A stretch of 64,000 bases of DNA. It comes from Planctomycetota bacterium (GTDB lineage: Bacteria; Planctomycetota; GCA-002687715; CAIWVZ01). The position numbers were made by a program, and so were the translations under genes. The notes under the pieces were generated by a model, which saw only the letters and a list, made by a program, of their open reading frames with translations, was not told the DNA's origin and did no database searches. Shown in pieces: positions 7,691 through 59,156 of this stretch. Location of the stretch: NCBI GenBank assembly GCA_044222185.1, contig JBGANV010000008.1:224001-288000 (forward strand). The letters are read 5' to 3'. Numbering within the stretch: position 1 is the stretch's first letter; each line of letters begins with the position of its first letter.

Positions 7691-8875
7691 TCAGTTGACG
7701 ACGTGAGTGATCGCGTTCGACACCTGGCTGGCCGGCGTCGCGCCCGCCGGCCCGACGAACCCGAGAGCCACCGCATCGAAGGTGAACCCGAGCGGGACGC
7801 CGCCGACGGGGCCGAGCGTGATCCCGCCGCAGGAGCTCAGCGGCCCCACGAACGGGAAACCGGAGATGAACTGTCCGACGATCTCGGAGATCGCCGGCGC
7901 GATCCCGTAGAAGTAGCCCGTGGGAGCTGCGCCGGTGTTCACCGTGCTCACGGCGAGGAAGTAGGTGCCGCTCGCGGGGCCATCGGCGATGTAGAGCTGC
8001 AGCGAGCCCGAGCCGAGAGGCTGGGTTGCCGCCAGCGTCATCGGGCCCGTGGCGAGGTCGAGCGTGAACTGGCTCCCGAATCCGGATCCTGCCGACACGC
8101 GGATGTAGTACGTCGCGCCGGCCTGCGACGGGAAGCTGACGCTCGAGCCCACGAAGCACCCGGGCGAGTTGTCGTTGCAGGCGATCTGCAGGCCGCCGCA
8201 ACCGGTGTAGACGCTGATGACGGAGTCGTAGAAGTAGCAGTCGGTGTTCACCGTCAGCACGGTGCTGCATGGCGTCGTATATCGGAACCACAGATCGTGC
8301 GTGGCCGCGCCGCAGCTCGGCGGAGGACCGGCGCTCGGCGTCGCCCCGACGTTCAGGAACGGGCCGTTGTGCCCCTTCGTGATCGGAATGGCTCCGGAGC
8401 ACTCGTCGTTGGCCGGCGGCGGGATGGGCGGGCTGATGTTCACGGGGAAGGTCCCCGTCTGTGCCGAGAGGACGTAGCTCCCCACGCGGATGTAGTACGG
8501 CGTGCCGGCGGTGAGGTTCACGTAGACGAGTGACCGGTTGCCGCACCATCGATCGTTGCACCCGATGTAGAAGGCATTGCCGATCGGGCACACGGCAAAG
8601 ACGGCGAGCACGGTCTGAACGAGCGTGCCGCCGCCGCAGGTGTCGATCGCGTACGGCGCCGTCGCCGGAGGAATGAACCGGAACCACACGTCGTTGATGA
8701 TCCCCGCGCAGGAGATCGTCGACGACGTGGTCGACCCCGTGTTCGTGAAGAGGCCGTTGGATCCGATGAACACGGGAATGGCCGTCGTGCAGTCGTCGTT
8801 GGTCACCTGGGCGCCGACGTGAACGACGACGGCGAGGACGAGCAACGCGCACCGAGCGAGGTTCGGGAGAGTCAT
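7691..8875 (-). CDS. Secreted protein with 2 Cys-containing NDxC...DxWF...YYIRV (PPC-like) repeats and a C-terminal beta domain
   Basis: Signal peptide MTLPNLARCALLVLAVVVHVGAQ and two ~120-aa repeats. Paralog of 8938..10530. Confidence 0.8.
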   Translation of the reverse strand: MTLPNLARCALLVLAVVVHVGAQVTNDDCTTAIPVFIGSNGLFTNTGSTTSSTISCAGIINDVWFRFIPPATAPYAIDTCGGGTLVQTVLAVFAVCPIGNAFYIGCNDRWCGNRSLVYVNLTAGTPYYIRVGSYVLSAQTGTFPVNISPPIPPPANDECSGAIPITKGHNGPFLNVGATPSAGPPPSCGAATHDLWFRYTTPCSTVLTVNTDCYFYDSVISVYTGCGGLQIACNDNSPGCFVGSSVSFPSQAGATYYIRVSAGSGFGSQFTLDLATGPMTLAATQPLGSGSLQLYIADGPASGTYFLAVSTVNTGAAPTGYFYGIAPAISEIVGQFISGFPFVGPLSSCGGITLGPVGGVPLGFTFDAVALGFVGPAGATPASQVSNAITHVVN

Positions 8876-8937
8876 GAAAGTTCTTTCTGAGCCGATGGAT
8901 TCGACCGGGTGACCGCCGTTCCGCCGTCGCGATCCAC

Positions 8938-10530
8938 TCACTGGACGGTGTAGGTCATGGATGTCGACGCGGAGGCGGGGACGAGCGACCCACCCGCGTT
9001 GAAGCCCACGGCCACGCTGTCGAACCGCAACCCCGGCGGAAGTCCGACGTAGGGGCCGACGACTGCGGTTCCGCATGGCGTCAGCGGTCCGAAGAACGGC
9101 GACCCGGGCTGCACTTCGGAGACGAGCTCGAGCAACGTGAGGTCGATCCCGAAGAACGGCCCCGCGGGAGCGACGCCCGTGTGCTGCAGGGCGATGGCGA
9201 GCAGGAACCCTCCGTTCGGAGCTCCATTCACGATGTCGGTGCGTAGCGACCCCGACCCTGCCGGCTGCCAGAGGATCTGTCGGAGGGGTGCGTTCGTGAC
9301 CGGTGCGATCGTCAGGTTGAAGATGCCCGGGCCGATGTTGTTCGGGGCGACCCGGATCCAATACGTCCGTCCGACGAGCGCCGTCAGTGCGACGGTGGCT
9401 CCTCCAGGCCCGCAGAAAGGATCGTCATCGGCGCAGTCGATGAGGTTCCCACCGCAACCCTCGTACACGTCGAGCACGGTGTCGTACCCGCCGCATCCGC
9501 TGCTGATGGTGATGTCCTGGCTGCAACCCGTGTTCAGGTAGGAGAACCAGACGTCTGGGGAGGCCCCGCCGAGACAGCCCGTGAAAGTCGCGCTCGGTGT
9601 GGCAATCCCGTTGGAGAACGGGCCATTCACTCCCATGACGACAGGCGTCGCCGTGGAGCAGTCGTCTCCGACCCCGCGTGCGATCTCCAGGTTGAATACT
9701 CCAGGCTGAGCCGCCTTCGCGGCCACGCGGATGAAGTACACCGCGCCCTGACCCGCGTTGAAACCGAGCGAGGACCCGCCCGACGGGCAGGACGGGGTGT
9801 CGTCGTTGCACGCAATGGCGGCTCCCCCGCAAGCGCCGTAAACGCTGAGCACCGTGTCGTACTGACCGCACCCCGTGGAAACGACGACGGGACCCGTGGC
9901 GAGCGAATGCACGTATCGAAACCACAGGTCGTAAAGGCCATTCCCAGCACAGTTCACGGCTCCGGCCGTCGGCGTCGCCGCGATGTTGTTGAACGGACCC
10001 GACGCCCCCAGCGGCACGGTGAGCGCCTGTGCGCACGTGTCGTTCGTCGCCGCAGGCACCGCCGCCTCCACCGTCAGGTAGAACGTCCCGCCGGGGCCGT
10101 CGTTCGCCGAACCCACCCCGACGATGTACGACGCGCCCCACAGCAAATACGCCGTGACCGACGACCGCGACCCGCAGGAGTTGTCATCGCAGCCGAGCGA
10201 GTTGGCTCCGCAATAATCGAAAACGTCGACGACGCTGTCGGTCAGCGAGCCCGCCGCGAAACCCGCCGGCGTACAGGTCTTGAACGTGTAGGGCGCAGTG
10301 AACGCCGGCGTGAAGACGAACCAGACATCCTTGCCCGCGCCGCCGCAGGTCATCCAACCGGATTGAGTCGCCCCCACGTTCGTGAAGCGGAATCCGGACG
10401 CTGCCGGTGTCGGGTTCACGCCAGCAACGATGTTGATGGGGGTCGTGCACTCGTCGTTCGAAACCTGTGCGGACGCTGCCGTTGCAAGAACGAGGCACGC
10501 AACGCCGAGGGCGAGGAACTTCATCACCAT
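8938..10530 (-). CDS. Secreted protein with 3 NDxC...DxWF...YxIRV (PPC-like) repeats and a C-terminal beta domain
   Basis: GGAG before MVMKFLALGVACLVLATAASAQ (start 10530 or 10524). Three repeats and the same C-terminal domain as 7691..8875. Confidence 0.82.
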   Translation of the reverse strand: MVMKFLALGVACLVLATAASAQVSNDECTTPINIVAGVNPTPAASGFRFTNVGATQSGWMTCGGAGKDVWFVFTPAFTAPYTFKTCTPAGFAAGSLTDSVVDVFDYCGANSLGCDDNSCGSRSSVTAYLLWGASYIVGVGSANDGPGGTFYLTVEAAVPAATNDTCAQALTVPLGASGPFNNIAATPTAGAVNCAGNGLYDLWFRYVHSLATGPVVVSTGCGQYDTVLSVYGACGGAAIACNDDTPSCPSGGSSLGFNAGQGAVYFIRVAAKAAQPGVFNLEIARGVGDDCSTATPVVMGVNGPFSNGIATPSATFTGCLGGASPDVWFSYLNTGCSQDITISSGCGGYDTVLDVYEGCGGNLIDCADDDPFCGPGGATVALTALVGRTYWIRVAPNNIGPGIFNLTIAPVTNAPLRQILWQPAGSGSLRTDIVNGAPNGGFLLAIALQHTGVAPAGPFFGIDLTLLELVSEVQPGSPFFGPLTPCGTAVVGPYVGLPPGLRFDSVAVGFNAGGSLVPASASTSMTYTVQ

Positions 10531-10950
10531 GTCTCCGGAAGGGCGAGCGTGGCACTCGAGGGTGAGGAGTGCGCGGCTGGGAATCGACGTGGCCGAAGAG
10601 CAGTCAACCGAGGCATAGACGGCCGAGGCGGCAGTTTGCGGGGCGCGACGGATCGGATCAACCGCTTGCGCCACCTCGCCGGCGCGCGCCTCAGGTTGGG
10701 AAACTTCTGGTTCCCTCAGGCGGGACGCCGCGCGTCACCTCAGTAAAAAAAACCGCCAGGTTCTGTTTGCCGGGTCGACGCAGCCGGGTGTACCGTCGCC
10801 GCCCTGTTGCACGCGCCGCCGGATCGTTTTGCACGATCACAGTTCGAAGGTGTGCTCCCCGGAACCCGCGAACGAGTTCGCCCCCGGCTGCCGCGCAGTC
10901 CAGGCATCGTCGTTACTCGGCCCCTCGATCTGAAGACAGGAGTCCTTGCC

Positions 10951-14726: not shown

Positions 14727-16382
14727 TCAGCGCTCGGAGCGCGTCGCGATGGCGACGGTCTCCGGCTGCTTCTGCGCGGCGTCGTAGAGCGCCACGAACG
14801 TGCGTGGTTCCGCGGCGTCGACCGAGCGTAGCGCCGCGACCCACGCCGGCGGGATGGACTGATACTCGAGCCACACGATGGCCTGCAGCCCCTTCGGCGT
14901 CCCCTCGGCGATTGGGACCCGGACGGTGACGGTGTCCGCCCCGCCGGTGAAATTCGAGTCGTCGCCGATCGCCACCGGCGCGATGTCGCCGATTCCGGTC
15001 GCGTCTGGGCGCCAGCCCTTCGGCAGGAGTCGCGTGTCCTTGGCCCGCTTCGCCATCTTCGAGAGGTATGTCGTCGGTTTTCCGGACGGATCGACCGCCA
15101 CCATCTCGTAGACGACCACGTCCTCGGGTTTCTCCACCGTGTCCTTGTGCGGGATCGACAGCTCGTCACCGACCTTCACGAGGGAGCCATCCTTGTCGAC
15201 GGCGCCGGACTCGAAGAGGACCTCCCTCCCGCTCCGCACCTGCACGTGGAGCCACGCACGGCGCGCCGGGTAGCCCGTGGGGAACTTGTGTCCCGTGAGG
15301 TTCGTCACCGTGATCGAGAACTCCGCTCGACCGTCCTTGCGCGTGATGTCCCCCACGTCGAGCCGCACCGTGTCGTTCTGCAACTGGCGTCGAGTCGCCG
15401 CCGCCGCGCGCTCCAGCGCCGACTCGGGCGCCGTCACGCCCAGTTGCGTGCGGTTCGCCCGGAGCAGGTCGAGCATGAACGCGTTGCCCCCCACGAACAG
15501 ATGAGGCGCGAAGTCGGGACGCGGCGCGATGACGAAGTCGCGACCCATGGGATTGCGCGCGATGCGCGTCGGTCCCTGCGACGGCATGTGGCACTGCTGG
15601 CACGTGCGCGAGTCCTTCCCCGCGTCGTGCTCGTTCTGGAACGCGCTGTTGCGCCATTCGAGATAAGGCGACTGCTCGGGAAACGCCGACCCCGTATGGC
15701 CTGTGAAGAGCGTATGGCAGCTCCCGCACAGTCCTGAGGACCGCACGTGCTCCGCATGCGTAGGGGCGTAGCCGGAGTGCATCCGCATGGGACCCGGCGC
15801 CGGATCGGGATACGGCCCGTAGATCTCGCGCCCCCGCTTCAAGCTGAACATCCCCCCGAACGTCGAGGAGTCGCCCAGTCCCTCGGGCTGGATCTGGTGG
15901 CACACCGTGCACGAGACGCCGTCAGCCGCGAGCGGATCGTCGGCGATCGCCGCCATCGTCAGAGCGGGCTGACCACCAAGCCTCGCCGTGTGGTGGGCCA
16001 TGGGAGCGTGGCACCGGATGCAGAGCGCCTGCGTCGCCGGCGCGTGCTCAGGATCGGCCGCCGACTCCTTGGCGACCTGCGCGCGCCAATAGGGATCGCG
16101 GAACGCGTTCGCCATGAGCGACGCCTGCCACAGCCCGTGCGGCGAGATGTCGTCACCGGTCGGCGAGCGCATGGCGGTCGCCGCGGGCGCCGCGGAATGG
16201 CACATCGAGCACCCATTTCCCGTGGCGAAGACCTCGTTGGCAGCCGTGGGGCGCACGGGGCCCCGCCACGGCGGGCCCGCGCCGAGCGGCTCGGGGCGAG
16301 TCTCCTGGGCCATCGCTCCGACGACGATCACGAACGAAACCACGACAAACGACGCGACACGGGGGGGCTTGGATCGACGCAT
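14727..16382 (-). CDS. Exported multiheme (pentaheme) cytochrome c
   Basis: Five CxxCH motifs (CSMCH, CIRCH, CTVCH, CGSCH, CQQCH), signal peptide, and VTNLTGHKFPTG in the C-terminal beta domain. Confidence 0.92.
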   Translation of the reverse strand: MRRSKPPRVASFVVVSFVIVVGAMAQETRPEPLGAGPPWRGPVRPTAANEVFATGNGCSMCHSAAPAATAMRSPTGDDISPHGLWQASLMANAFRDPYWRAQVAKESAADPEHAPATQALCIRCHAPMAHHTARLGGQPALTMAAIADDPLAADGVSCTVCHQIQPEGLGDSSTFGGMFSLKRGREIYGPYPDPAPGPMRMHSGYAPTHAEHVRSSGLCGSCHTLFTGHTGSAFPEQSPYLEWRNSAFQNEHDAGKDSRTCQQCHMPSQGPTRIARNPMGRDFVIAPRPDFAPHLFVGGNAFMLDLLRANRTQLGVTAPESALERAAAATRRQLQNDTVRLDVGDITRKDGRAEFSITVTNLTGHKFPTGYPARRAWLHVQVRSGREVLFESGAVDKDGSLVKVGDELSIPHKDTVEKPEDVVVYEMVAVDPSGKPTTYLSKMAKRAKDTRLLPKGWRPDATGIGDIAPVAIGDDSNFTGGADTVTVRVPIAEGTPKGLQAIVWLEYQSIPPAWVAALRSVDAAEPRTFVALYDAAQKQPETVAIATRSER

Positions 16383-16556
16383 GGGCGCAGACTACCGCGA
16401 AGGCCGAGGCTTGCCCCTACGCGCATGGACGGACGTCAGCAGGCGCCCCCTGCCTTGACCCCCGGCCGGTTCGGCCGCAAGCTTGCGCCCATCGCGTTGG
16501 GGGTAGCGTCGACTCGCGACGCGTTCGCCACGCACAGCCATCGAGGAACACCTGCC

Positions 16557-17567
16557 ATGTCACGCACGCTTCCGTCGCTCCTTCTCGCGGCCGCTCTCGC
16601 GACCGTGCTCGGAGCCCAGGTCAAGGTCGGGGACCGCGCACCGCGCGTCGCGCCGGAGAAGCTGGGCAACACCACGATCACGTCGCTGGGCCAGCTCCGC
16701 GGCAAAGCGATCCTCTACGAGTACTTCGCGTATTGGTGAGGCCCCTGCAAGGCGGCCACGCCGCACGTCAACCAGTTGGTTGACAAGTACGGTTCGCAGG
16801 GGTTCTTCGTCGTCGGCGTCACGGGTGAGGCCGAGGAGCCGACTCTCGGATACATCAGCGAGACGAAGACGAAGGCGATCATCGCCTACGAGTCGAAGGA
16901 ACTGCCCAGCATGAAGGCCTACGGGTTCTCGGGATTCCCTTCGGCTGCGCTCGTTGGGGCGGACGGCAAGGTCGTCTGGACCGGCCACCCGTCGGCGCTG
17001 AACGACAAGCTCATCGAGAAGGCGCTCGCGGGAGTCAAGCCTGGCCCCCTCTCGGACGGCCTCATGATGGACGTCGAGCTCCCGAAGAAGTACGCCGCCA
17101 TCGAGAAACAACTCAACGGCGGCAAGATCGGCGATGGCTACAAGGCACTCGCGGCCGCTCTCGCGGCGCCCGGCGTCAACGACTCGGACCGCAGCGCTCT
17201 GGAAGCCGCGAAGAAGCAGGTCGACGAACTCGGCACGGCGGAACTGAAGAAGGCCGAGCTCGCGAACATGGAGAAGCGGCTCTTCGACGCGCAGGTCGGG
17301 TGGAAGCGCATCAGCACCCAGATGCCCGGAACCGATGCGGGACGCATCGCGGACGGGCTTCTCGCCGAGCTGGCGAAGAACGCGGAAGCCAAGCGCGAAC
17401 TCGAAGTCGGGCAACGGATCGCAGACGCCCAGAAACTCGCCGCTGCCGGCAAGGCCGCCGCGGCCGCATCCGCGCTCTCGTCGATCCTCGAGGGACCGAT
17501 GAAGGACACGGTGGAGGCCGAACGCGCGAAGAAACTGCTCGCAGAGATCAAGGCGAAGAAGGGCTGA
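16557..17567 (+). CDS. Exported TlpA/thioredoxin-fold selenoprotein (UxxC) with helical C-terminal domain; in-frame UGA at 16737-16739
   Basis: GAGGA RBS and signal peptide, then VGDRAP...LRGKAILYEYFAYW-TGA-GPCKAATPHVNQL...GFPSAALVGADGKVVW. The TGA sits at the first Cys of the WCxPC motif, and the two ORF-track pieces are in the same frame. Confidence 0.88.
16761..16792 (+). promoter_or_regulatory. Putative bacterial SECIS element
   Basis: Perfect 7-bp stem GUCAACC/GGUUGAC (16767-16784) with an AGUU loop, extended by CCGCAC/GUACGG with one mismatch. The loop begins 35 nt after the UGA and has G at its second position. Confidence 0.6.
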
Positions 17568-17576
17568 TCGCTCCGG

Positions 17577-20500
17577 TCACGGCCAACCGAACGTGATCGA
17601 CGTCTCCGCGTTGGCCGTCAGGATCGCCTGCTTCGTCTCCGGCGCCGTGTCGGGCTTCTTCAGCGTGACCGAGTAGTTCCCGGGCGGGAGCGGAATCGAA
17701 TACTGCGGCTTGATGAGCGACGTGATCGCCCAGATGCGCTCGCCCGTCGGATCCACCACTTCGAGAGTCGAGGGGCCGCGCCCGCCGTGCGTAGCCGCCG
17801 CCGGCCCCGGGCTCAGGTTGATCAAGAGCACGCCCGCCGTCACCACGGGAATCGTCGCCTCGACGTCGCCGCCGGCAGCGGGAGTGGCCAGAGGCTTTCC
17901 GATCGGAGTCGCATACGGGATGCGCTCTCGCCCGTTCACGTCGAGCACGCAGACGCGATACCGCTTGCCAGCACCGAGACCAGCCATCACGAACGTGCCG
18001 TCCGACGACAGACGCACGTACTCGCCGACGCTGACTCCCACCTCGTAGAACGCCACCACGGCCGAGTGGAACGGGACTGCCGTATCGACGGTGACCGTCC
18101 CATGAAGCGTCACTCCGCGTCGAGCGAGGATCCGGCGCGTCACGACCTTCCCAGCGAGAACCTCGATCGACATCGGAGGCGGCGGCGTGTAGCCGGCAAT
18201 CTGGATCCGCACGGTGTAGGTGCCGGCCGTCAGGTCCGCGAGGTGATACACCCCGAGACTCCGAGACGTCGGCTCGACCCCGTCGCCATCGCCGGCCACC
18301 GCGACGAACGCATTCGACACGGGGCGACCCGAGTCGGCGTCGGTGATGACGAGTTGCAGCGCGCCGAGCGACGGCGCCGCGCGGGGTCGCGGCACGGTGA
18401 TCGTGACCTCGCCCCCGTCGGTCTGGACGCCGCGAACGTCGGCGGCGCCCCACCGGAACCCGTCCACGGGTCGGGCACCGACGTAGTACGGCCCTGGCGG
18501 CAGTCCGCCGATTCGAAACCGCCCGTCCGGCGCCGTGCCGATTCCCCAATATTGCGGCGGGGGATTCGAGTGATCTCCGCCGCGCTCCCAGACCGCGTCG
18601 AAGGCGGAGGCCTCGGGCAGGCGTCCGTCGACGACGAGCACGCGGGCGTCAGGTACGAGCGCCCCGTCCTCGTCCACCACGCGCCCGAAGACCGCGTGCG
18701 CGCGCGCAAGCTTGACGACGACTTCCGCCTGAGGTTCCTCGTCCGTCATGATCGGCTCGGACTCACCGAGCGCGAAGCCCGGAGCATCCGCATAGATCGT
18801 CGCGGGACTCGGCGTTCGGTCAGGCCAACCATACGCGTAGCCCAGCCGCGCGCACCCGTCCATCCCCGTGTGCGTGAGTGAGTCCGCAACCGCGCCAGCC
18901 AAGATGAAGCGGTTGAACGAGACGGTCGCCCCGGCGATCGGCCGACCCTGCTCGTCCACGACGCGCACGGGCACCGGCATGACCGGGAACAGCCGGATGT
19001 CGGGCGCCTGGGTCGTCGTGCCACGCCTCACCGCGACGGTGACCGTCGATTGGACGCCGGCCATCAGCCCACTGGAGAATCCGCCCACCGCCACGTCGAC
19101 GGAATCGGCGGAGCCCACCCGGACGCCGTCGAACACGTAGCGGCCGTCGCGATCGGACGTCACGCGGCCGTGGTTTTCGGCAAATGCTGGGGGAAGTTGC
19201 GAGTTGCGGTCGATCCCGTCGCTGCGTGAGACGCGCGCGAAGCGTGCCGGCGACCCGTCAGCCTCGAGCACGCGCCCCTCGATGCGCGCGCAGCGGAAGA
19301 GCTGTATGTCGAGCGTGGCCGTGGACTCGTTGCCCGCCAACTCCGGCAGCCGGAGCTCGGTCGAGTATCCCGGAGCCGACGCAGCGAGAGCGGGCGCTCC
19401 CGAACCAACCGGACCACGAGGCCTGATCGAGGAGAACGTGTCGTCGCACGAAATCCCCGAGAGCACGAACGTGCCGTCGTTCCCCGCATCCGTTTCGATG
19501 AGGCCACGGATGGGGAGCGCGTCTTGGATCCAGTTGTGGCGCGTGCCCGCATGACCGAACCGCACCGTCTCGGACCAGCACGCGACGTGCGCGGAAGGTA
19601 TCGGCTTGCCCGTCTCGCCGTCGACGACACGCCCGCGGACCGTGGCACCACGCCCCAGAGTGATCGGCAGCTGCACCTCTCGCGTGGGTGAGGGAAACGG
19701 GCTGCGCAGCGTCGTGGTCGCGAAGCCCTCCGCGCGCACCTCGACGCCGTCGAACGGAGGCTCCCACACCATCACGCGCAGGTCGTCGTCGATGATGTCG
19801 GTCACGACGTAGCTTCCGTCGGGGGCCGATCGGCCGTCGCGCTCGACGATCACCCCCGAAAGGACGCACTGCCAACGGACCAGGGCCCCGCCGATCGCAT
19901 GTCCTTCGGCATCGCGCACCGTCCCCCGGATGGTGGCGGGCCTTCCGAGGGTGACGGTCACGTCATCGCCGAGGTGATGTGTTTCACCGACGACCGGGCC
20001 GAAGCCTTGTGCCTCCGCGAAGACGTAGAGCGACGGACTCGCCTGCCCGGGTTGGAGCCGGAAGCGGCCCTGGGCGTCCGTGACGCAGACGCGAACGCGG
20101 CCCTTGGGGTCGTCCACCGTACGCGCCGTCACCAGCGTCCTCGTGTCGCTCCCGTACATGACGACGCGTGCACCGGGCACGGGCTTGCCGTCGGGGTCGA
20201 CCACGCGCCCGGAGAGCGACGTCGGATCTGGATCGGGCACCAGTGGAACGGCTGCGATGCGTCCGCCAGCGGACGTCGGGTCGGCCGCGACCTCGCCCAC
20301 GCGCGAGTCCTCCTCGCCGGCGGGCCGCGCCCCGGGGGGCCCGGACGTTGTCTCGATCGTCGGGTTTCGCAGATGCCAGAGCGCGACCCCACCGAGGATG
20401 AGCAGGACCAGCCCCGTCAGCGCGGCCTTCGTCCCCGCGGCGCCCGCCGCGCCACCGGTCAGCGTGTGCCCCGCAGTCCCCCGAGGTCCCATGAGCGTCA

Positions 20501-21029
20501 CGAGGGGGCCGAGCGTCGCCTTCCACGCAGCGCCACGATCACGCTCGAGGCGCTCACGGAGTCTGTCCAACCCGCGAGCGAGGCGACTGCGAATGGTCGC
20601 GGGCGGCTCGCCCAGGTGTTCCCCGATCTGCATGGGAGTCAGTTCGCCGAAGAACCGCAGGAGGATCGTCGACCGATAGGGCTCCTCGAGCTCGAGGACG
20701 AGGCTCGTGAGCCGGCGATGCTGGTCCGCGCGCTCGGCGAGTTCCGCGGTCGACGGAACGATGTCAGCGCGCCGGGCAGCGTCCTCGCGGCGGTCCCGTC
20801 GGACTCGGGTGCGATGGGCCATGCGGGCCAGATTCCGGATCACCGCGGCGAACCAGGATCGGAACGCCAGTCCCTGAGGTGGAGCACCCCCGAGGGTCGC
20901 CAGCGCAGCCGTCTGGACGATGTCCTCAGCCAGTTGCTCGTCACCGACGAGGCTTCGCGCCAGGGCATAGGCCCACGATCCATTGGACAAGAGAGCTTGC
21001 AGGTCAGGTGTGCGAGGTGCGCCGCCCAT
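17577..21029 (-). CDS. ECF sigma-70 factor fused to a TM helix and multiple carboxypeptidase-regulatory-like (CnaB/transthyretin-type) repeats
   Basis: Region 2 LARSLVGDEQLAEDIVQ...FRSWFAAVIRNLA; region 4 LEEPYRSTILLRFFGELTPMQIG..LG.PPATIRSRLARG; a TM helix; repeated GRVVDxDGxP(V/I)xGAxV...TDxxGxF units. Confidence 0.9.
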   Translation of the reverse strand: MGGAPRTPDLQALLSNGSWAYALARSLVGDEQLAEDIVQTAALATLGGAPPQGLAFRSWFAAVIRNLARMAHRTRVRRDRREDAARRADIVPSTAELAERADQHRRLTSLVLELEEPYRSTILLRFFGELTPMQIGEHLGEPPATIRSRLARGLDRLRERLERDRGAAWKATLGPLVTLMGPRGTAGHTLTGGAAGAAGTKAALTGLVLLILGGVALWHLRNPTIETTSGPPGARPAGEEDSRVGEVAADPTSAGGRIAAVPLVPDPDPTSLSGRVVDPDGKPVPGARVVMYGSDTRTLVTARTVDDPKGRVRVCVTDAQGRFRLQPGQASPSLYVFAEAQGFGPVVGETHHLGDDVTVTLGRPATIRGTVRDAEGHAIGGALVRWQCVLSGVIVERDGRSAPDGSYVVTDIIDDDLRVMVWEPPFDGVEVRAEGFATTTLRSPFPSPTREVQLPITLGRGATVRGRVVDGETGKPIPSAHVACWSETVRFGHAGTRHNWIQDALPIRGLIETDAGNDGTFVLSGISCDDTFSSIRPRGPVGSGAPALAASAPGYSTELRLPELAGNESTATLDIQLFRCARIEGRVLEADGSPARFARVSRSDGIDRNSQLPPAFAENHGRVTSDRDGRYVFDGVRVGSADSVDVAVGGFSSGLMAGVQSTVTVAVRRGTTTQAPDIRLFPVMPVPVRVVDEQGRPIAGATVSFNRFILAGAVADSLTHTGMDGCARLGYAYGWPDRTPSPATIYADAPGFALGESEPIMTDEEPQAEVVVKLARAHAVFGRVVDEDGALVPDARVLVVDGRLPEASAFDAVWERGGDHSNPPPQYWGIGTAPDGRFRIGGLPPGPYYVGARPVDGFRWGAADVRGVQTDGGEVTITVPRPRAAPSLGALQLVITDADSGRPVSNAFVAVAGDGDGVEPTSRSLGVYHLADLTAGTYTVRIQIAGYTPPPPMSIEVLAGKVVTRRILARRGVTLHGTVTVDTAVPFHSAVVAFYEVGVSVGEYVRLSSDGTFVMAGLGAGKRYRVCVLDVNGRERIPYATPIGKPLATPAAGGDVEATIPVVTAGVLLINLSPGPAAATHGGRGPSTLEVVDPTGERIWAITSLIKPQYSIPLPPGNYSVTLKKPDTAPETKQAILTANAETSITFGWP

Positions 21030-26824: not shown

Positions 26825-27769
26825 TCAACCGGCCTGTTTGAAGAGATCGAGGAAGCGATCCTCGTACGTGCGGAACAGGTCGTGGCGATCGAGCTCGGCC
26901 TTCAGCTCCAGTGCCTTCGCGCGGTCCGTTCTGGCCGCTTCGAACAGGACCTCGATTCGATCGAGGACTGCCTTCGGAACGCGCGGGCGCGTTGCCGTCT
27001 TGTCCGCGGGCCGCACCACCTGCTGCTCGGCCGTCTCGGGCGCAGGTCGCGTCGCCGCGTCGCTCGCCGTCTCGAGACTCTCGAGATGACTCACGAGCTG
27101 CCCCTCGATCCGCGAGGCGTCGCCGCGCAGGCTCTCCAAGTCGATCGGAGTCCCGAGCATCCGACCGAAGACCTCCAGCACGGCGGCCGATGCCTTCGGG
27201 TTCGGGAGCTGCGCTGCGAAGAACGGGAACTCGCCCAAGAGGCAGCATCCCGGAAGTCCACGGGCCGCGGCGGCGGCGATCAGGAAACCGTTCAGCCCAT
27301 TGATCTCCCCATCCTCCAGCGGCGTCACGCCATGCTGGCGCAACTCGTCGAGCAACGCGGGCTGCGTCGCGATCCCAAAGACGTGTGGCTGCGCCGTCGG
27401 ATGCGTGGGGGTCGCCATGGCGGCGAACGTGACGACGCGTTCGATCCCGAAGCGGGCGGCCATTTCGAGGAGCGCGGCCGCGTATTGCGACGTCGCCGTC
27501 GCGGGCTGGCGATCCGCGACGAAGATCACCAGATCGTGGCCGCCAGCGGGGTTGCGCCAGCCGAAAAGCGGTGTGCTCGGCGGCGGTGCGGCCTGAACGA
27601 GGCCGTCGCGAACGAGCACGGATTGGGGCTCGACGAACGGTGACGCGTCAAAGACCCCGAGTGGCGTCGCGCCGAGTTGATTCACGAGGACCGCACCGGC
27701 GATGTGGGCCACGCCCCCCATCCCGGGCCAGGTGGCCACGAGCCACGGTGACTTCAGCTCATTTCCCAT
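26825..27769 (-). CDS. PAC2 (proteasome assembly chaperone-like) family protein
   Basis: PWLVATWPGMGGVA, DRQP, VVTFAAM, INGLNGFLI, GCCLLGE, PNPKASAAVL, IDLESL. Confidence 0.85.
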   Translation of the reverse strand: MGNELKSPWLVATWPGMGGVAHIAGAVLVNQLGATPLGVFDASPFVEPQSVLVRDGLVQAAPPPSTPLFGWRNPAGGHDLVIFVADRQPATATSQYAAALLEMAARFGIERVVTFAAMATPTHPTAQPHVFGIATQPALLDELRQHGVTPLEDGEINGLNGFLIAAAAARGLPGCCLLGEFPFFAAQLPNPKASAAVLEVFGRMLGTPIDLESLRGDASRIEGQLVSHLESLETASDAATRPAPETAEQQVVRPADKTATRPRVPKAVLDRIEVLFEAARTDRAKALELKAELDRHDLFRTYEDRFLDLFKQAG

Positions 27770-28087
27770 TTGCAACTTCCATCATCGCCCGGATGTCGCT
27801 GGCGAGCACCCTGGCGACCACGTCCCACGCACCCATTTCGACGACGAATCGCAGTCAGTCGCCGGAAGCAGCCTCACTCATGATTCATCTACGTGGCACG
27901 GACGCTGGACGTCGATTCCGGAGCGGGATCGCGGGGAGGCCCGGTCCACCAATCAGCCAGTGCCGGCTGCAACGCAGGCTCACCCGCATTCCAAACCAAC
28001 ACGCGGGCGCCGGCTCGTGTATGCTCCGCCCCCGACGGCGCGCAGGCGGCGGCGATCCGTCGAGGCGAATAGGACGATGGTTCACCG

Positions 28088-37522: not shown

Positions 37523-38686
37523 ATGTGCACGCCCAGCGTCAGAACCATGGCCGCGACCGCGCCCTGGCCGCGACTCGCCGCATTGGCGATGCTCCTCGCG
37601 ATGAGTGCATCGATCGCTGCCGGCGAGGTCGCACAGAGCAAGCAAGCCGACTCGCGCGCATGGCTACCACGTCATCAATCATCCGATGGGCGATGGCGTT
37701 CCGATGGGTTCAGCGAATGCTGCGATGCCGGCGGAAGCCGGTGCGGTGACCCGGGAATCGGCGGCATGGACGTGGCGGCCACGGGGCTCGTGCTCCTGGC
37801 TTTCATGGGATCCGGGTTCGACGATGAACGCCCGAGCCCGTACCGGGAGGTCGTCGGCAACGGCATGCGATGGCTCGCGAGCGTCCAGACCGAGGCGGGC
37901 TGGTTCGGGTCCCGCTACGCGGCACGCGCCAGGTTCTCCCACGTCGTTGCGACGCTGGCTGTCACGGAGAGCTACGAGTCCACGAGACGACCGGTGTGGC
38001 GCGATCGCGGCCGGCGGGGCATCGCCGCGATCTTCTCGAAGAGCGTGGTTCGCTGGCCGTGGGAACGGGGTGTGGAGCGCGCGGACGATGATGCGCTCGT
38101 GACGGCATGGACGCTCCGCGCTCTCTCGGAGGCCAACTGCGAGTGGTCGGAGTCGGTCGACTTGTCGATCGTGCGCCCGATGATCGGCCTCCTCGACCGA
38201 GCCGCGATGGCCGACGGCGGAGTGTCCGTCGACTCGCGCTCGTCGGATTCGCGGCGGACTCGCGGAGGCCCACCGCGCGGCTCGAGCCTCACGACCCCCG
38301 AGTTCGCCGCCTCCGCGGCGCTGTGGGCGCGCCACCGTTTCGCCGTGATGCGCTCGCAGGAGGATGAACCCATCATGGCTCTTCACCAGCAGCGCGTCGC
38401 GGCGCGACCGCCCGCACTCGATCCGGCGAAAGGCTCGATCGATCCGCTGGACTGGTGTTTCGAGTTCAGTGTCGTCCCGCGCGACGCCGCGGACGAATGG
38501 GCCAGTGATCTGCGGCCGTTGCTGAACGAGATGCAGCGGAAGACGGGCTGCGCCGATCTCAGTTTCGATCCACGTGGCGGGTTGTCGAGACTCGGCGGCC
38601 GCGTCATCGCGACGGCGATCGCGTATCTCGCATTGGAGGTGAGCGACCAGGAGTTCGGGACGCGCCCAACCTGGCTGTTGAGGTAG
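37523..38686 (+). CDS. Secreted alpha/alpha-barrel (prenyltransferase/squalene cyclase-like repeat) protein, copy 1
   Basis: Signal peptide (start 37523 or 37547); WLPRHQSSDGRW, DVAATGLVLLAFMG, GMRWLASVQxxxGWFG, GGRVIATA. Confidence 0.75.
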   Translation: MCTPSVRTMAATAPWPRLAALAMLLAMSASIAAGEVAQSKQADSRAWLPRHQSSDGRWRSDGFSECCDAGGSRCGDPGIGGMDVAATGLVLLAFMGSGFDDERPSPYREVVGNGMRWLASVQTEAGWFGSRYAARARFSHVVATLAVTESYESTRRPVWRDRGRRGIAAIFSKSVVRWPWERGVERADDDALVTAWTLRALSEANCEWSESVDLSIVRPMIGLLDRAAMADGGVSVDSRSSDSRRTRGGPPRGSSLTTPEFAASAALWARHRFAVMRSQEDEPIMALHQQRVAARPPALDPAKGSIDPLDWCFEFSVVPRDAADEWASDLRPLLNEMQRKTGCADLSFDPRGGLSRLGGRVIATAIAYLALEVSDQEFGTRPTWLLR

Positions 38687-38788
38687 CGGGTACGGCGCGT
38701 CGAGCGTGCCCGGCGCCCGGCGAAAGCGCAACGGCGGGAGGCCTTCTTCCTGTATGCTGCCGCGCGTCCCCGCCGGACAAGGACTCGG

Positions 38789-40000
38789 GTGCACATTCAA
38801 TTGCAGGAGCGGAACCACGTTCGTGTGATCGTCCGTGCGATCGCGGCGAGTGCGCGACTCGCTGGGCTTGCGTTAATCGTTGCGAGCATGGCCGCGAGTG
38901 CCGATCGCGGAATTGCACAGGACGCGCCGACGGTGTCGCAACCCGCATCCCAGCCGACCTCGCGACCGCCCGAATCGCGCGAGTGGCTCCCCCGGCATCA
39001 GTCACCGGATGGCCGATGGAGCTCGGATGGCTTCTCCGTCCATTGCGACGCTGGCGGGCCACGATGCACAGACCCTGGAATCGGCGGCATGGACGTGGCG
39101 GCCACGGGACTCGTGCTCCTGGCCTTCATGGGCGCCGGTTACGACGAAGAGCGTCCGGGACCGTACCGGGAGGTCGTGAGCAAAGGCATGCGTTGGCTCG
39201 CGAGCGTCCAGGACGACGCCGGCTGGTTCGGATCGCGCTACGCAGCGCGGGCCAGATTCTCCCACGTGATCGCGACGCTCGCCGTGGCAGAGAGCTTTGG
39301 TTCCACGGGACGGCGCGTATGGCGCGACCGGGCTGAGAAGGGACAGAGAGCCCTCCGCACGGATGGCCCGGTGCGCTGGCCATGGGACGTCCGCGCCGAG
39401 CCGGCGGACGACGACGCATTGGTCACGGCATGGGCGCTCCTCGCAATGTCGGAGGGGCGAGGGGAATGGTCCGCGTCGACCGACCCGGCGACAGTCCGAA
39501 CGATGGTCGGGTTGCTGGACCGCGCCGCAAGGCAAGGCGATGAGCCCGCAGCCAGTTCACGATCAGTCGGATCGCGAGGTGCGACCGAAAGCCGGTCCGC
39601 TCGAACGAGCCTGACGACGCCGGAGTTCGCCGCAGCCGCGGCGTTGCTCGCGCGTCGCCGGTTCGCTCTCAGGAACGCACCCGACGACGAAGCGATCATC
39701 GCGCACCACCAGCGGCGCCTCGCGGCGCGGCCTCCGTCGATAGACGAGGCGAGGGGTTCGGTCGATCCGCTGGATTGGTGCTTTGGGATCCGTGCCGTCG
39801 AAGACGACAGTTGGCCAATGTGGGCCGGCCAGATTCGATTGATCGCTGTCGACTTGCAGATCAAGGACGGCTGCGCCCGAGGGAGCTTCGATCCGCACGG
39901 AGGACTTGGCCGACTCGGCGGCCGCACGATCGCGACGGCTCTGTCGTTGATCGCCATCGAGCTGCGTTATTTCCGCGGGCCCCAATGCTTCGGGCGTTGA
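38789..40000 (+). CDS. Secreted alpha/alpha-barrel (prenyltransferase/squalene cyclase-like repeat) protein, copy 2
   Basis: Collinear paralog of 37523..38686. Start is uncertain (38789 or GTG 38825). Confidence 0.75.
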   Translation: MHIQLQERNHVRVIVRAIAASARLAGLALIVASMAASADRGIAQDAPTVSQPASQPTSRPPESREWLPRHQSPDGRWSSDGFSVHCDAGGPRCTDPGIGGMDVAATGLVLLAFMGAGYDEERPGPYREVVSKGMRWLASVQDDAGWFGSRYAARARFSHVIATLAVAESFGSTGRRVWRDRAEKGQRALRTDGPVRWPWDVRAEPADDDALVTAWALLAMSEGRGEWSASTDPATVRTMVGLLDRAARQGDEPAASSRSVGSRGATESRSARTSLTTPEFAAAAALLARRRFALRNAPDDEAIIAHHQRRLAARPPSIDEARGSVDPLDWCFGIRAVEDDSWPMWAGQIRLIAVDLQIKDGCARGSFDPHGGLGRLGGRTIATALSLIAIELRYFRGPQCFGR

Positions 40001-40304
40001 ACGCCATCAGCGATGACGTGAGCTCTTGATGAGTCCGTACGACATCTCGACCGTGCGAGTCCGACCAGCACACAGTGGGGGTCGAATTCCCATCCCGGCG
40101 ATACCGGTGATCGTGATCGTCGACCTCGCTTCCGAGCTACCCCGGCTCGCTTTCGATGATCACGCGGGTCGCCAGTGATCTCGCACCGGGCCGCAATCCG
40201 CGCCGGTCGGTCCGCGCGGGACGCGCGGCGATCCGGCCGGTCCCGGCCGAGACGGCGGTGTACTTGGCGCCCGCGGAAGAGAGGCCGCGTAGACTCAGGC
40301 CCCC

Positions 40305-40982
40305 ATGAGGAGCAGTCGACGCGAGATCGCACGTGCGCTGCGAGCCTTCTTCGGAAGCCGCGTTGCGCGGCTTGCGCGCCCCCACGAATCGGGCCCTGCG
40401 ATCGTGGCGGGGCGGATTGCCGCACGACTCGCGCTGTCGAGCGCTGCGCCCCGGTACTTCGACATCGCGACCTCCGCCGTCGATGCGGCCGCCGCGGCGA
40501 GCGGACTTACCTTCGATGCCTGCCCGCTCATCGACGACGAGGCCGATCCGGCTCTCGACGTGGGCGCCCAGCGCGACCGCTGGGATCGCTTCGTCGCGCA
40601 CCTTCCGGCCGCGATGCCGCGCCCGCGACTCCGATTCCCACAATCGGAACTGAGGTTGAGCCGAGGGCTGGCCACCCTCACGACCTTGAGCCTCATCTCG
40701 TTCGGAGGCTCCGGCCCCCTACGCGCGGTCGGGATCCTGGCGTGGCCGGTCGCGGCGGGCGCGTATCTCGCGCTCCGGCGTCGTCATCGCACGGCCGTCA
40801 CTCCGGCGATCGGCGACGCGCGAGAACTCGCGGAGTGGATGTCGACGACCGCGATTCGGGATGCGATCGACCGACACGAACCCATCAGTCGCGACGACGT
40901 CGAACAGGCCGTCGCGATCGCATTCGACTCGACGCCGGAAGAGACTGGGGCCGCCGCCGACGGCGATCCCATCGACGGCTGA
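40305..40982 (+). CDS. Hypothetical membrane protein
   Basis: Fills the gap between confident genes; TAGACT 9 nt before the ATG; two hydrophobic segments; no recognisable family. Confidence 0.4.
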   Translation: MRSSRREIARALRAFFGSRVARLARPHESGPAIVAGRIAARLALSSAAPRYFDIATSAVDAAAAASGLTFDACPLIDDEADPALDVGAQRDRWDRFVAHLPAAMPRPRLRFPQSELRLSRGLATLTTLSLISFGGSGPLRAVGILAWPVAAGAYLALRRRHRTAVTPAIGDARELAEWMSTTAIRDAIDRHEPISRDDVEQAVAIAFDSTPEETGAAADGDPIDG

Positions 40983-40996
40983 GCGCCCCGCAGCCA

Positions 40997-43207
40997 TCAC
41001 GGCAGGAACACGATCTCCCGGCCGTCGCTCGCGGCGAACGAACCGTTGTGCGCGGTCACGGTGGTCGCGACGACTTGGAAGCGGCCGACAAGTCCCGAGA
41101 GGCCCGGCGGAACGGGGAAATCGAGAGTGTTCGCGGGCGTGGAATTCAGGGGCACGGCCGACAGGACGATCCCACTCGGATAGCCGACGTAGATCGGCGA
41201 CAGACCCGACGGAGGCAGCACGGGGTCACTGCCACTCGGATAGGCGTCGGCGACGAGGAGCGACGGAACTCCCACGATGCTCCCGAGCGGGCAACGCCAC
41301 CGCATCGTGAGAAGCTGGCCCGGCGCGATGGACTTGCGGCCTTCGTTCCCGAAGACGCCATCGATGCCGGACTCGAGGGTGAGGTCGTCGTTCGTGCCCG
41401 TGAGCCCCACGAACGCGTCGCTCTCGCAAGCGATGGCGACGGGCGTGTACGGGAACGAATATGCCCGGATGACGGCTCGGGACTCGCCGAACACCACGTA
41501 GAGGCCCGCGTCGACCGTCGCCAGGAGGTTGTATCCGTTTGCGAACGAGAAGCCGCGCACGGTGCCGCCGAGCTCACCAGGTCGGCTGAACAGTTGGCTC
41601 GGTCCCGTCGCCAGCGTCGACGGGTCGATCTCGACCAGTTCCTTCGTCACCCCGATGAAGCCCTGCCCGAACGCAAACAGACGATCGCTGACGGGGTTTC
41701 CCGCCAGTCGCGCGCCGGTCGGCAGGCCAGCGTTGGAAATCAGCTGCGTGGCGACGCCGCCCGGAAGGGCCAATTCGTAGATCGGGTTGAACGCGAACAG
41801 GGCCGGCGCCGTCGACGCGATCAGGCGACCGAGAGGGTCGAACGTGAGCGTGCGAAGCGCCGTCGTGTACGTCCGGATCGAGGTGCACGCGCCATTGGCC
41901 ACGTTGACCGACACGAGCGCCGTCGACGAGCCCATGGTGACCAACGCGAAGTAGCTGTTGGTGCCCGGCCGGCGGACGAAGGCGTGCACGGCCGTGATTG
42001 CTGGTCCCTGCGAGGACAGCGCGACGGACGACAACGTGAAACCATCCGAAAGCCGCACGCGCCGCAACGTGTTCGATCCATCGATCGTCCAGGCACGGCC
42101 GTCGAGAGGCGGAGCCGGGTCCACGGTGACGGTCACCGATGCGGGGCTGAGGACTCCATTCGTGCAGCCGAGCGAGTCCATCACGGACGTCAGGGTGTAC
42201 GTCGTCGTCGCAGCCGGAATGACATGGCGCGTCGCGAGGGTCGCGGAGGTGGTCTGCGTCACCCCGTCGGCCCACGTGAGCGTGAACGGAGGCGTGCCTG
42301 ACAAGAGGATCGTAAGCCGTTCCACGGCGCCGTAGGCCAGGCGCAACGGCCCCGAGACCGACGCGTGGGGCCGTTGGAGCACGTTGAACGGGGCCGACCC
42401 CGAGATGATGCCCGGGCACCCATGGACGTCGGTGCACGTGAGGATCTGAAGCGGCTGCGCGCCCGGCGTGGTGTGCGTTTTCTGCCGCGAGTACTGCCCC
42501 GGCGACGTGATGGTCTGGGTGAGGGCATCGCTCCAGGTGACCTGGAACGGCGGATCACCCGTGATCGTGAAGTCGATCGTCGACGTTTCGGAGACGCACA
42601 CGGTGCTGCTTCCATTGATGCCGTAGTTGACCGACGCGCCGTAGGCCGCCACGTTCGTGCGCCGAGTGTTCGAGTAACCCGCCACGTCCGTGACGCGGAG
42701 GTCGAACCATTGGCCAGCGCCGGACGCGAACGTATGCGAGGCGGACGGTCCACTCGCCGTGCCGCCATCGGAGAACGTCCACAAGTAATTCACGATGGGG
42801 CCCAACCCCGAATAGGACCCGGCGCTGTGCATGCTGACGTTCAGAGGAGCACATCCCGTCGTCGCCGACGATTGGACGACGGCGAGTGGCCCCTGCTGGA
42901 CGTTGATCGTCTGAGACACGGGCGTGAAGGAACCGTTCTGGAAGATGAGCGTCAACGTGACCGTCTTCGGGCCCGCGGTGGCGAAGGTGTATGGCACGGT
43001 GACGGTGCGGCAGCCGCAGCCGCCGCCGACGTAAAGCCCATCGAGGTGCCAGAGATTCGCGACGATGCCGGGGGCCGTGGACGTGTCCGTGAACGTGACC
43101 GGCACGGACGAGTAAACGGTCGACGGCGAGTAGGTGAACGAAAGCTGGGCGAGGCCGGGTGCGACGCCGATGAACATCACGAGAGCGAGCGAGGCCAGTA
43201 TCCGCAT
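40997..43207 (-). CDS. Secreted PKD-domain protein with beta-propeller-like region and C-terminal domain
   Basis: GGAG RBS and signal peptide MRILASLALVMFIGVAPGLAQ; PKD motifs VTFTDTS...YTFATAG.KTVTL and YLWTFSDG...HTF; GxPPFxxTWxD repeats. Confidence 0.85.
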   Translation of the reverse strand: MRILASLALVMFIGVAPGLAQLSFTYSPSTVYSSVPVTFTDTSTAPGIVANLWHLDGLYVGGGCGCRTVTVPYTFATAGPKTVTLTLIFQNGSFTPVSQTINVQQGPLAVVQSSATTGCAPLNVSMHSAGSYSGLGPIVNYLWTFSDGGTASGPSASHTFASGAGQWFDLRVTDVAGYSNTRRTNVAAYGASVNYGINGSSTVCVSETSTIDFTITGDPPFQVTWSDALTQTITSPGQYSRQKTHTTPGAQPLQILTCTDVHGCPGIISGSAPFNVLQRPHASVSGPLRLAYGAVERLTILLSGTPPFTLTWADGVTQTTSATLATRHVIPAATTTYTLTSVMDSLGCTNGVLSPASVTVTVDPAPPLDGRAWTIDGSNTLRRVRLSDGFTLSSVALSSQGPAITAVHAFVRRPGTNSYFALVTMGSSTALVSVNVANGACTSIRTYTTALRTLTFDPLGRLIASTAPALFAFNPIYELALPGGVATQLISNAGLPTGARLAGNPVSDRLFAFGQGFIGVTKELVEIDPSTLATGPSQLFSRPGELGGTVRGFSFANGYNLLATVDAGLYVVFGESRAVIRAYSFPYTPVAIACESDAFVGLTGTNDDLTLESGIDGVFGNEGRKSIAPGQLLTMRWRCPLGSIVGVPSLLVADAYPSGSDPVLPPSGLSPIYVGYPSGIVLSAVPLNSTPANTLDFPVPPGLSGLVGRFQVVATTVTAHNGSFAASDGREIVFLP

Positions 43208-43564: not shown

Positions 43565-44167
43565 TCAATCGTCCAGGAGTTCGTCGAAGATCGAATCCGG
43601 CAGCGCGGCGCGGAGCTTCTCGAGCCCCCGTCGATAGCGGTGAGAAACGGTGTTGGGCGATTCACCAAGATCGGCCGCGATGTCCGCGTTCTCGACGCCC
43701 TCGACGGCGCGGAGCAGCACGATCGTCCGCACCGGCTCACCGAGCGACTCGAGCGCGCTTCGCACGCGATCGGAGAACTGGCGATCCTGGGGCACGCTCG
43801 CGCGGCACGTGGGCTCGGCCAACCGCTCCTCGACGGAATCGATACGGTCGACTCTGCGTTTGAGCGCATTCTCGATGCGCCGATTGCAGAGCGCGCGGAC
43901 CGTGGTCGCCAGGAAGCACAAGAGAACCGGAGTGAACCGACCCGCGCGGGGAACGATCTCGCCCAGCCTCGGGAGCATGACGAGCCACGCCTCGGCGACC
44001 ACATCCTCCGCATCGCCGACCGCCACCGGGGTCCCGGAGAGACGCATCCGCGCCTGCGCCTCGAGCAGCGGCGAGAACCGCTGGACGATCCACTCGACGC
44101 TTTCACGATCGTGAGCGATTGCCGCTCGTACGTGGCGTGTCGTCAGATCGATCCGCGGTTCGACCAC
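43565..44167 (-). CDS. ECF sigma-70 factor, divergent from a Ser/Thr kinase
   Basis: GAAAGGA RBS with GTG 44167; region 2 DAEDVVAEAW; region 4 ALESLGEPVRTIVLLRAVEGVENADIAADLGESPNTV..RYRRGLEKLR. Confidence 0.88.
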   Translation of the reverse strand: MVEPRIDLTTRHVRAAIAHDRESVEWIVQRFSPLLEAQARMRLSGTPVAVGDAEDVVAEAWLVMLPRLGEIVPRAGRFTPVLLCFLATTVRALCNRRIENALKRRVDRIDSVEERLAEPTCRASVPQDRQFSDRVRSALESLGEPVRTIVLLRAVEGVENADIAADLGESPNTVSHRYRRGLEKLRAALPDSIFDELLDD

Positions 44168-44282
44168 CGAGAGTCCTTTCGTGCGGCGTTCATGAGCGTC
44201 GACATTATGGCTCAACGAGCGGCGGATTGCCGGATGCACCCGTTCATCTCCTCGGCGAAACCCGTGTATCCTCCCACCGCCC

Positions 44283-58939: not shown

Positions 58940-58947
58940 AACGCGCG

Positions 58948-58976
58948 AGTCTAGGCCGCGTTGCGTCGGGCGGCAA
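58948..58976 (-). promoter_or_regulatory. Putative sigma70-type promoter of the kinase-ECF operon
   Basis: Minus strand reads TTGCCG-N17-TAGACT, 8 nt before GTG 58939, with no SD sequence. Confidence 0.55.
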
Positions 58977-59156
58977 GCGCGGCGAGGAGTCGCAGCCAAG
59001 CCACGTCAGTGCTCACGCCACACGACCTCGCGGGTTTTTCCCAGGGGCTGTTCGCTCTCCCCCACGACCTCCGCTGAACCCCATGAGAGCCTCCCGGCCT
59101 GGGGCGCAAATCCCCCTCCCGTCGCGGGCAGGCGCAGCAATTCCCGGAGATCAGCC

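Follow-up and report, generated by a model that had tools for sequence, protein, structure and literature searches.

ResA, TlpA and CcmG (DsbE) are thiol:disulfide reductases that act outside the cytoplasm in the maturation of cytochrome c and copper centres, and chaperedoxins of the CnoX/YbbN type, which are cytoplasmic and contain no selenocysteine (Sec), consist of a thioredoxin domain followed by a C-terminal tetratricopeptide repeat (TPR) domain. Here we describe a gene at positions 16557-17567 on the forward strand of a 64-kb stretch of DNA from a Planctomycetota bacterium (contig JBGANV010000008.1; the whole stretch is called the window below). On comparative sequence evidence we propose that it is, with high probability, a genuine and conserved selenoprotein gene, whose product would be an exported two-domain thiol:disulfide oxidoreductase with Sec at residue 61 (U61) of a W-U-G-P-C motif.

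How does this predicted protein compare with the closest described systems? With ResA, TlpA and CcmG it shares the thioredoxin fold, a motif of the W-x-x-P-C type, the loop around an invariant proline (Pro128) and predicted export. In contrast to them it would have Sec in place of the first Cys, it carries an additional C-terminal domain, its scores lie far below the NCBIfam cut-offs, and across 11 related loci the gene has no conserved linkage to cytochrome-maturation genes. Likewise, the succession of a thioredoxin-fold domain and an all-helical, repeat-like domain recalls CnoX/YbbN, a likeness that we treat as a lead only; however, structural comparison of the C-terminal domain of the window protein with TPR proteins gave nothing significant (best E = 0.17). 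We also considered NF041054 ('ResA-like WAxxUGC motif-containing protein'), a curated NCBIfam selenoprotein family with a 354-position model that is ResA-like and of similar length. Membership was rejected, since the window protein scores 22.3 bits against a cut-off of 300 and its motif is W-U-G-P-C rather than WAxxUGC.

UxxC selenoprotein families built on pfam00578, pfam13905/cd02966 and PF08534 are listed in two catalogues (PMC9312934, PMC13188914). The original prediction, made from the window sequence, started from the premise that UxxC thioredoxin-fold selenoproteins exist, and TlpA-like and Redoxin forms are already catalogued there. The window gene resembles these entries in its Pfam fold family, in a UxxC motif with Sec predicted at the attacking position and in the logic of a Sec insertion sequence (SECIS) inside the open reading frame (ORF); as far as the listings in the two papers go, it is set apart by a conserved helical domain of ~165 residues, a signal peptide and a SECIS sequence of its own. 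Closer in lineage, full sets of Sec genes (selA/selB/selD) are reported in four planctomycetes (PMC4807772), where thioredoxin-like selenoproteins are predicted for the phylum as well, and Table S9 of that paper gives two 'thiol-disulfide isomerase-like thioredoxin' selenoprotein candidates for planctomycete P1. As these two are described there, they match the window gene in phylum, in kind of protein, in annotation as two genes split at TGA and in Cys in the closest match; they differ in that the description reports no SECIS for them, whereas that of the window gene is clear and conserved. The gene is a further case of the known thioredoxin-fold UxxC selenoproteins of the TlpA-like/Redoxin type and introduces no new principle.

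The in-frame TGA and its conservation

The elements on which the argument turns are the following.

16543-16547, + strand: Shine-Dalgarno-like GAGGA, 9 nt upstream of the ATG, read from the sequence
16557-17567, + strand: complete predicted selenoprotein gene, 336 codons plus the terminal TGA stop at 17565-17567, from the read-through translation and full-length homology
16734-16748, + strand: active-site motif W60-U61-G62-P63-C64, which aligns with WCGPC/WCPPC of Cys-form relatives
16737-16739, + strand: predicted Sec codon, an in-frame TGA at codon 61, matched by a TGA at the equivalent codon of all 11 loci
16767-16784, + strand: SECIS-like upper stem-loop GUCAACC-AGUU-GGUUGAC, with a 7-bp stem (16767-16773/16778-16784) and an AGUU loop (16774-16777), 34 nt after the UGA

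The ORF starts at ATG 16557, which we take as the true start because GAGGA sits 9 nt upstream. From there the only interruption is the TGA at 16737-16739, codon 61 of 336, and the read-through translation of 336 residues runs EYFAYW-TGA-GPCKAATPHVNQLVDKY across it, so that the original description of a gene split in frame as FAYW-TGA-GPC is correct. The gene contains no other stop and no frameshift. In a window of 68% G+C, the G+C content at third codon positions (GC3) is 0.86-0.93 on either side of the internal TGA, and both sides therefore look coding.

Two protein searches, one word-indexed and one exhaustive over 1.84 billion representatives, together yielded 170 relatives, and a profile search of genome contigs with an 11-sequence alignment yielded 11 homologous loci (L001-L011). 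Ten of these loci are labelled as Planctomycetota or members of the phylum and one only as 'bacterium', and their proteins are 41-53% identical to the query. In all 11, a TGA falls exactly at the W-TGA-[G/T]-P-C position and the frame is kept on both sides; the upstream 60 codons, which encode the signal peptide and an EYFA(Y/F/H/W)W strand, are conserved in frame in every locus, and so is the downstream protein. Most of the other relatives are full length, with W-C-G-P-C or W-C-P-P-C as their motif; a minority have lost it, for example P0005, P0035 and P0043. U61 aligns with the first Cys of these motifs, for example in P0022, which is 47.6% identical. The alignment of homologues that had been suggested as a check of codon 61 thus returns TGA in 11 of 11 loci and Cys in more distant relatives.

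Could the TGA be a TGC or TGT codon that was mutated or misread, leaving a gene that is dead or in fact encodes Cys? A single base separates the codons, and the window is a single assembly. However, 11 independent loci, which belong to different bins and are 41-53% identical in protein, share this TGA, the rest of the reading frame is intact with high GC3 on both sides, and the hairpin that follows is conserved and covarying, as described below. Because the TGA is present in every locus, both flanks are conserved and the hairpin covaries, we consider a pseudogene or sequencing error effectively refuted, with next to no chance of being the explanation.

The way in which the gene has been annotated bears on a second alternative. 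Mechanical ORF calling splits the gene and returns a 263-aa ORF starting at TTG 16776, and entry P0002 of the public protein collection is exactly this 263-aa fragment, which bears out the expectation that standard pipelines miss the gene. Similarly, 22 of the 170 relatives are N-terminally truncated predictions whose first residue aligns at query positions 68-99, just past codon 61. Since several truncated predictions are near-identical to TGA-confirmed loci (P0025 to L005, P0003 to L004 and P0044 to L009), we attribute the truncation to an annotation artefact of the TGA. It might nevertheless be held that UGA-61 is a true stop and that the functional product is what the gene callers predict, the 263-aa ORF without an active site, perhaps alongside an exported peptide of 60 residues; relatives with a degenerate active site do exist (P0005, P0035 and P0043 among them), and a redox-dead form is not absurd in itself. 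Against this, an internal start would delete the signal peptide as well as the first strands and helix of a thioredoxin fold that forms one compact domain in the structural model, every one of the 11 loci preserves the 60 codons upstream in frame, signal peptide and EYFAYW included, and the internal start is not itself conserved, lying at position 68, 74, 85 or 99. We judge termination at UGA-61 to be very improbable and continue with read-through of the codon.

How are the TGA-containing genes related to the Cys forms? A maximum-likelihood tree (LG+G4, with SH-aLRT values as the only measure of support) was built from window residues 100-332 of 82 two-domain proteins, comprising 10 TGA-confirmed genes, 22 truncated predictions, 38 CxxC forms and 12 degenerate-motif forms. 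The CxxC rows were chosen for matching two-domain length, longer multi-domain and short matches being left out, as were the TGA-containing L003, which is near-identical to L002, and L011, which is partial. One group of 28 rows (support 88) holds all 10 TGA-confirmed genes, 16 truncated predictions, P0022 (CxxC) and P0029 (CxxS). The truncated clusters P0063 and P0127 fall outside this group, yet have the N-Q-L-[VI] peptide discussed below. On this tree the predicted Sec form is a clade nested in a larger family of Cys-containing proteins.

We note two further points about the loci. L006 10112 and L007 7811 are contigs of one bin (DYIW01), each with a TGA-containing copy of the gene, and the bin holds two predicted Sec-form paralogues, unless it is mixed. 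Separately, L001 (CAMARR010000011.1) is labelled Candidatus Kuenenia stuttgartiensis. Kuenenia has a G+C content of ~41%; because the locus has 60.5% G+C and shares synteny with L002 and L003, both from unclassified Planctomycetota, the label looks doubtful.

The hairpin downstream of UGA-61

What would allow UGA-61 to be read as Sec? The original prediction pointed to a 7-bp hairpin within the coding sequence, GUCAACC-AGUU-GGUUGAC, and it is indeed present at 16767-16784. In the bacterial SECIS (bSECIS) model as set out in PMC13188914, the loop has 3-9 nt with G at position 1 or 2, the upper stem 4-16 bp, the distance from UGA to loop is 16-37 nt and the minimum free energy is <= -7.5 kcal/mol; the same spacing of 16-37 nt is given in PMC10778597. 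The window hairpin agrees with each of these values, having a 4-nt AGUU loop with G at position 2 followed by U, a 7-bp stem, a distance of 34 nt and, as a bare hairpin, an energy of -9.0 kcal/mol. Across 12 related sequences, 7 reach -7.5 kcal/mol or below as bare hairpins, and with their sequence context all 12 lie at or below -15 kcal/mol.

The comparative evidence on the hairpin, which is independent of the conservation of the TGA codon, comes from an alignment of the 66 nt starting at the TGA in these 12 sequences, 11 of which are distinct. The hairpin occupies columns 31-37 and 42-48 in every one of them, and the AGUU loop is invariant (12/12). Standard pairs are found in 96.1% of the 77 cells, compared with 7.8-46.8% when the 3' arm is shifted by 1-3 columns. 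Compensatory changes affect two of the seven pairs: the basal pair, where C-G is replaced by G-C, and the sixth, where C-G is replaced by U-A. The covariation score of 0.187 (shuffled mean 0.065) is reached by none of 500 shuffles. Since related sequences can beat shuffles without any structure, we take codon use and the encoded peptide as two independent lines. For example, the Leu that spans the loop and 3' arm is encoded by TTG in all 12 hairpins, whereas in the rest of these genes TTG accounts for 23 of 365 Leu codons, and the codon that follows is GTT in 9 of 9 cases where it encodes Val, as against 11 of 251 Val codons elsewhere in these genes. Rare codons are thus fixed in the hairpin, which is a constraint at the nucleotide level. 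Likewise, all clade members that cover the site, whether TGA-confirmed or truncated, encode N-Q-L-[VI] across the hairpin, and none of the 38 CxxC forms examined does; P0022, a Cys form nested in the Sec clade, has N-E-L-A there. The RNA structure thus dictates protein sequence in UGA-containing genes alone.

The original prediction also included an extended lower stem. This stem is present in the window, but it is poorly conserved, its individual pairs forming in 3 to 11 of the 11 distinct sequences; the conserved element is the 7-bp upper stem with its AGUU loop. A further helix is possible on the 5' side (columns 1-29, window 16737-16765), where pairing reaches 93% in mostly invariant coding sequence and is equalled in 28 of 500 shuffles. 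This possible helix pairs the UGA itself (U1-A29, G2-C28), and within it columns 6 and 24 covary.

Several results weigh against a Sec codon read by means of this hairpin. For the 64 nt that start at the TGA, the fold energy is -26 kcal/mol (z = -1.96), and 10 of 200 shuffles fold as well or better, which suggests that the fold energy of the window sequence alone is mildly unusual and not decisive; that the hairpin exceeds chance follows from the comparative evidence, namely TGA conservation, covariation and codon use. The bare hairpin of L009 has one mismatch and is the weakest of the set at -2.7 kcal/mol, and Rfam gives no relevant match around the hairpin even at E <= 10. Neither selA, selB, selD nor tRNA-Sec was found in the 64-kb window (tRNA scan, Rfam, and Pfam on 29 ORFs) or in ~170 kb of homologue flanks (tRNA scan, and Pfam on 49 and 52 ORFs), in ORF sets picked by a crude GC3 filter that may miss small genes. 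Finally, the gene neighbourhood differs in every lineage, with no conserved arrangement across the 11 loci that would support any particular substrate.

These results leave some room for read-through of UGA-61 by means other than Sec, that is, near-cognate insertion of Trp or Cys stimulated by the hairpin, or a partial reassignment of UGA. Stimulatory downstream hairpins are known for other recoding events, and the searches of the window and the homologue flanks found no Sec machinery. However, the UGA stands where the CxxC motif has its catalytic Cys, the classic position of Sec, and the hairpin fits the loop, stem and spacing rules of the bSECIS model, while Sec machinery is documented in the phylum in the planctomycete genomes reported in PMC4807772. 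Reassignment is further countered by stop codon use. All 14 confident window genes end in TGA, an extreme preference, and the window gene as well as all ten complete homologues end at a genuine TGA stop. As UGA is an ordinary stop here, the code is not reassigned and UGA is read differently only at codon 61, in accord with the earlier remark that TGA-terminated genes in the window speak against a global code change. We consider non-Sec read-through improbable. A single mRNA uses UGA both as a predicted Sec codon and as a stop.

Sec insertion at UGA-61 is consequently the reading that we carry forward, and the marks of a selenoprotein gene are found here: the UGA aligns with Cys of homologues, the UGA and its flanks are conserved across orthologues, and the hairpin conforms to the bSECIS model. 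We propose that the hairpin, 34 nt past UGA-61, acts as a bacterial SECIS when the mRNA is translated, as the comparative RNA evidence suggests, and that SelB carrying Sec-tRNA(Sec) would bind it and deliver Sec to UGA-61. The terminal UGA, which has no such hairpin, would lead to termination.

Domains of the predicted protein and a proposed mechanism

The product of the read-through translation divides as follows.

16557-16616, + strand: predicted Sec-type signal peptide, residues 1-20 (MSRTLPSLLLAAALATVLGA), by inspection, with likely cleavage before QVKVGD
16620-17042, + strand: ResA/TlpA/DsbE-type thioredoxin-fold domain, ~residues 22-162, from Pfam, the family profile against the PDB and Foldseek
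16938-16940, + strand: codon of Pro128 in a G-F-P-S loop, invariant in the 35-sequence family alignment
17064-17564, + strand: C-terminal all-helical domain, residues 170-336, with eight helices rich in Ala, Lys and Glu, from the AlphaFold model

By eye, the signal peptide has a basic n-region, a hydrophobic h-region and small residues before Q21, and a like layout is seen in the nine complete homologues that were translated. The AlphaFold model was computed from the 35-sequence alignment with C in place of U, and as a whole it has a mean predicted local distance difference test score (pLDDT) of 93.0 and a predicted template modelling score (pTM) of 0.76; residues 1-20 are low, at pLDDT 54-57.

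The N-terminal domain is assigned by several searches. Redoxin, AhpC-TSA and Thioredoxin_8 all match in Pfam over residues 23-145, Redoxin with E = 2.8e-11 and 43.8 bits against a cut-off of 26.6 and AhpC-TSA with 32 against 26, so that membership of the TlpA-like/Redoxin group (PF08534, cd02966) passes a curated Pfam threshold. The family profile searched against the PDB finds structures of ResA, DsbE and TlpA, the best being ResA 4nmu (5.4e-30), with no match beyond profile position 171. Similarly, the N-terminal domain of the model compares with ResA and DsbE in Foldseek at target-normalised template modelling (TM) scores of 0.79-0.83. In the NCBIfam models the protein scores below every cut-off concerned: 52.7 against 170 for ResA (NF002854), 35.9 against 230 for TlpA (NF047696) and 25.7 against 123 for DsbE (TIGR00385). 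The protein belongs to the ResA/TlpA/DsbE fold family and is a member of no named family.

The predicted active site is arranged in the manner of these enzymes. U61 and C64 are the only Cys or Sec positions in the protein, and in the model a helix of residues 62-81 begins right after U61, which places it at the canonical site of the attacking residue. Pro128 we take to be the cis-proline of the thioredoxin fold.

The C-terminal domain is folded confidently and resembles little that is described. Modelled alone it reaches a pLDDT of 94.7; in the window copy it matches no Pfam family, and against the PDB Foldseek returns nothing at E <= 0.001, the best match being BamD (E = 0.17, TM 0.30). A weak resemblance to TPR proteins is seen, in that each TPR model matches one of ten members (best E = 3.7e-4) with Foldseek TM scores of at most 0.42. 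The combination of a signal peptide with a helical C-terminal domain had been put forward as unusual; this did not survive comparison, as the architecture is common to dozens of Cys-form clusters at 50% identity.

How might the protein work? By inspection of its N-terminus, the signal peptide would send it across the cytoplasmic membrane. By analogy with ResA, TlpA and CcmG, the thioredoxin-fold domain would there reduce or exchange disulfides of partner proteins, with U61 attacking and C64 resolving the selenenylsulfide, and a membrane reductase of the CcdA/DsbD type may recycle the enzyme. The C-terminal helical domain most likely binds a substrate or partner, which we regard as the weakest step of the proposal. 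More tentatively, and as a reading that is less likely than not, we suggest that the gene represents an uncatalogued family of exported selenoproteins, so far of Planctomycetota, in which a TlpA-like UxxC domain is joined to a helical domain without a solved structural counterpart. In this family a specific SECIS (YCAAYC-AGUU-GRUUGR) would force N-Q-L-[V/I] onto the first active-site helix, and the protein might serve as a substrate-specific periplasmic reductase or as a chaperedoxin-like holdase-reductase, and not as a generic cytochrome-maturation factor.

The surrounding window and the place of the family

On the other strand, at 14727-16382 (-), the divergent neighbour of the gene encodes a 551-aa multihaem cytochrome c with five CxxCH motifs and a Cytochrome_C7 match. 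We considered this cytochrome as a functional partner and rejected it as evidence, since the pairing is not conserved in the 11 related loci. The gene on the other side, at 17577-21029 (-), encodes a protein of 1150 aa in which N-terminal extracytoplasmic function (ECF) sigma-factor regions 2 and 4 are fused to a long CarboxypepD_reg-like array, an unusual fusion. A scan of the window for further genes with an in-frame TGA returned antisense shadow ORFs only, apart from 16557-17567.

Other features of the window are recorded here in their own right. Two sets, at 43565-47537 and 55137-58999, each consist of an ECF-sigma-like gene with region 4 only that adjoins a Ser/Thr protein kinase of ~1080 aa with TPR repeats; in the second pair (55137-58999) the genes overlap on the same strand. 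Two overlapping ORFs on one strand in different frames, at 7691-9361 (-) and 8938-10674 (-), both match GBD_T9SS_assoc; they may reflect one frameshifted gene, a fault in the assembly, or tandem paralogues of which one start was miscalled. A bacterial member of the PAC2 family, which is proteasome assembly chaperone-like, is encoded at 26825-27775 (-) (Pfam E = 4.4e-39). Finally, the 2.3 kb at 38686-40997 hold no ORF that passes the coding-like G+C filter and give no tRNA or Rfam match.

What does the gene mean for its family? Knowledge of how selenocysteine is encoded is unchanged by it. It does correct a recurrent mistake of annotation in the databases: the window gene and at least 16 related clusters at 50% identity are present in the public protein set only as truncated 'hypothetical' fragments without the active site, and because no curated NCBIfam model covers the family of the window gene, pipelines will keep missing it. 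It further provides, for Planctomycetota, a clean and comparatively validated bacterial SECIS in which the coupling of RNA structure and protein sequence is visible, and it marks the lineages that carry the gene as probable users of selenium.

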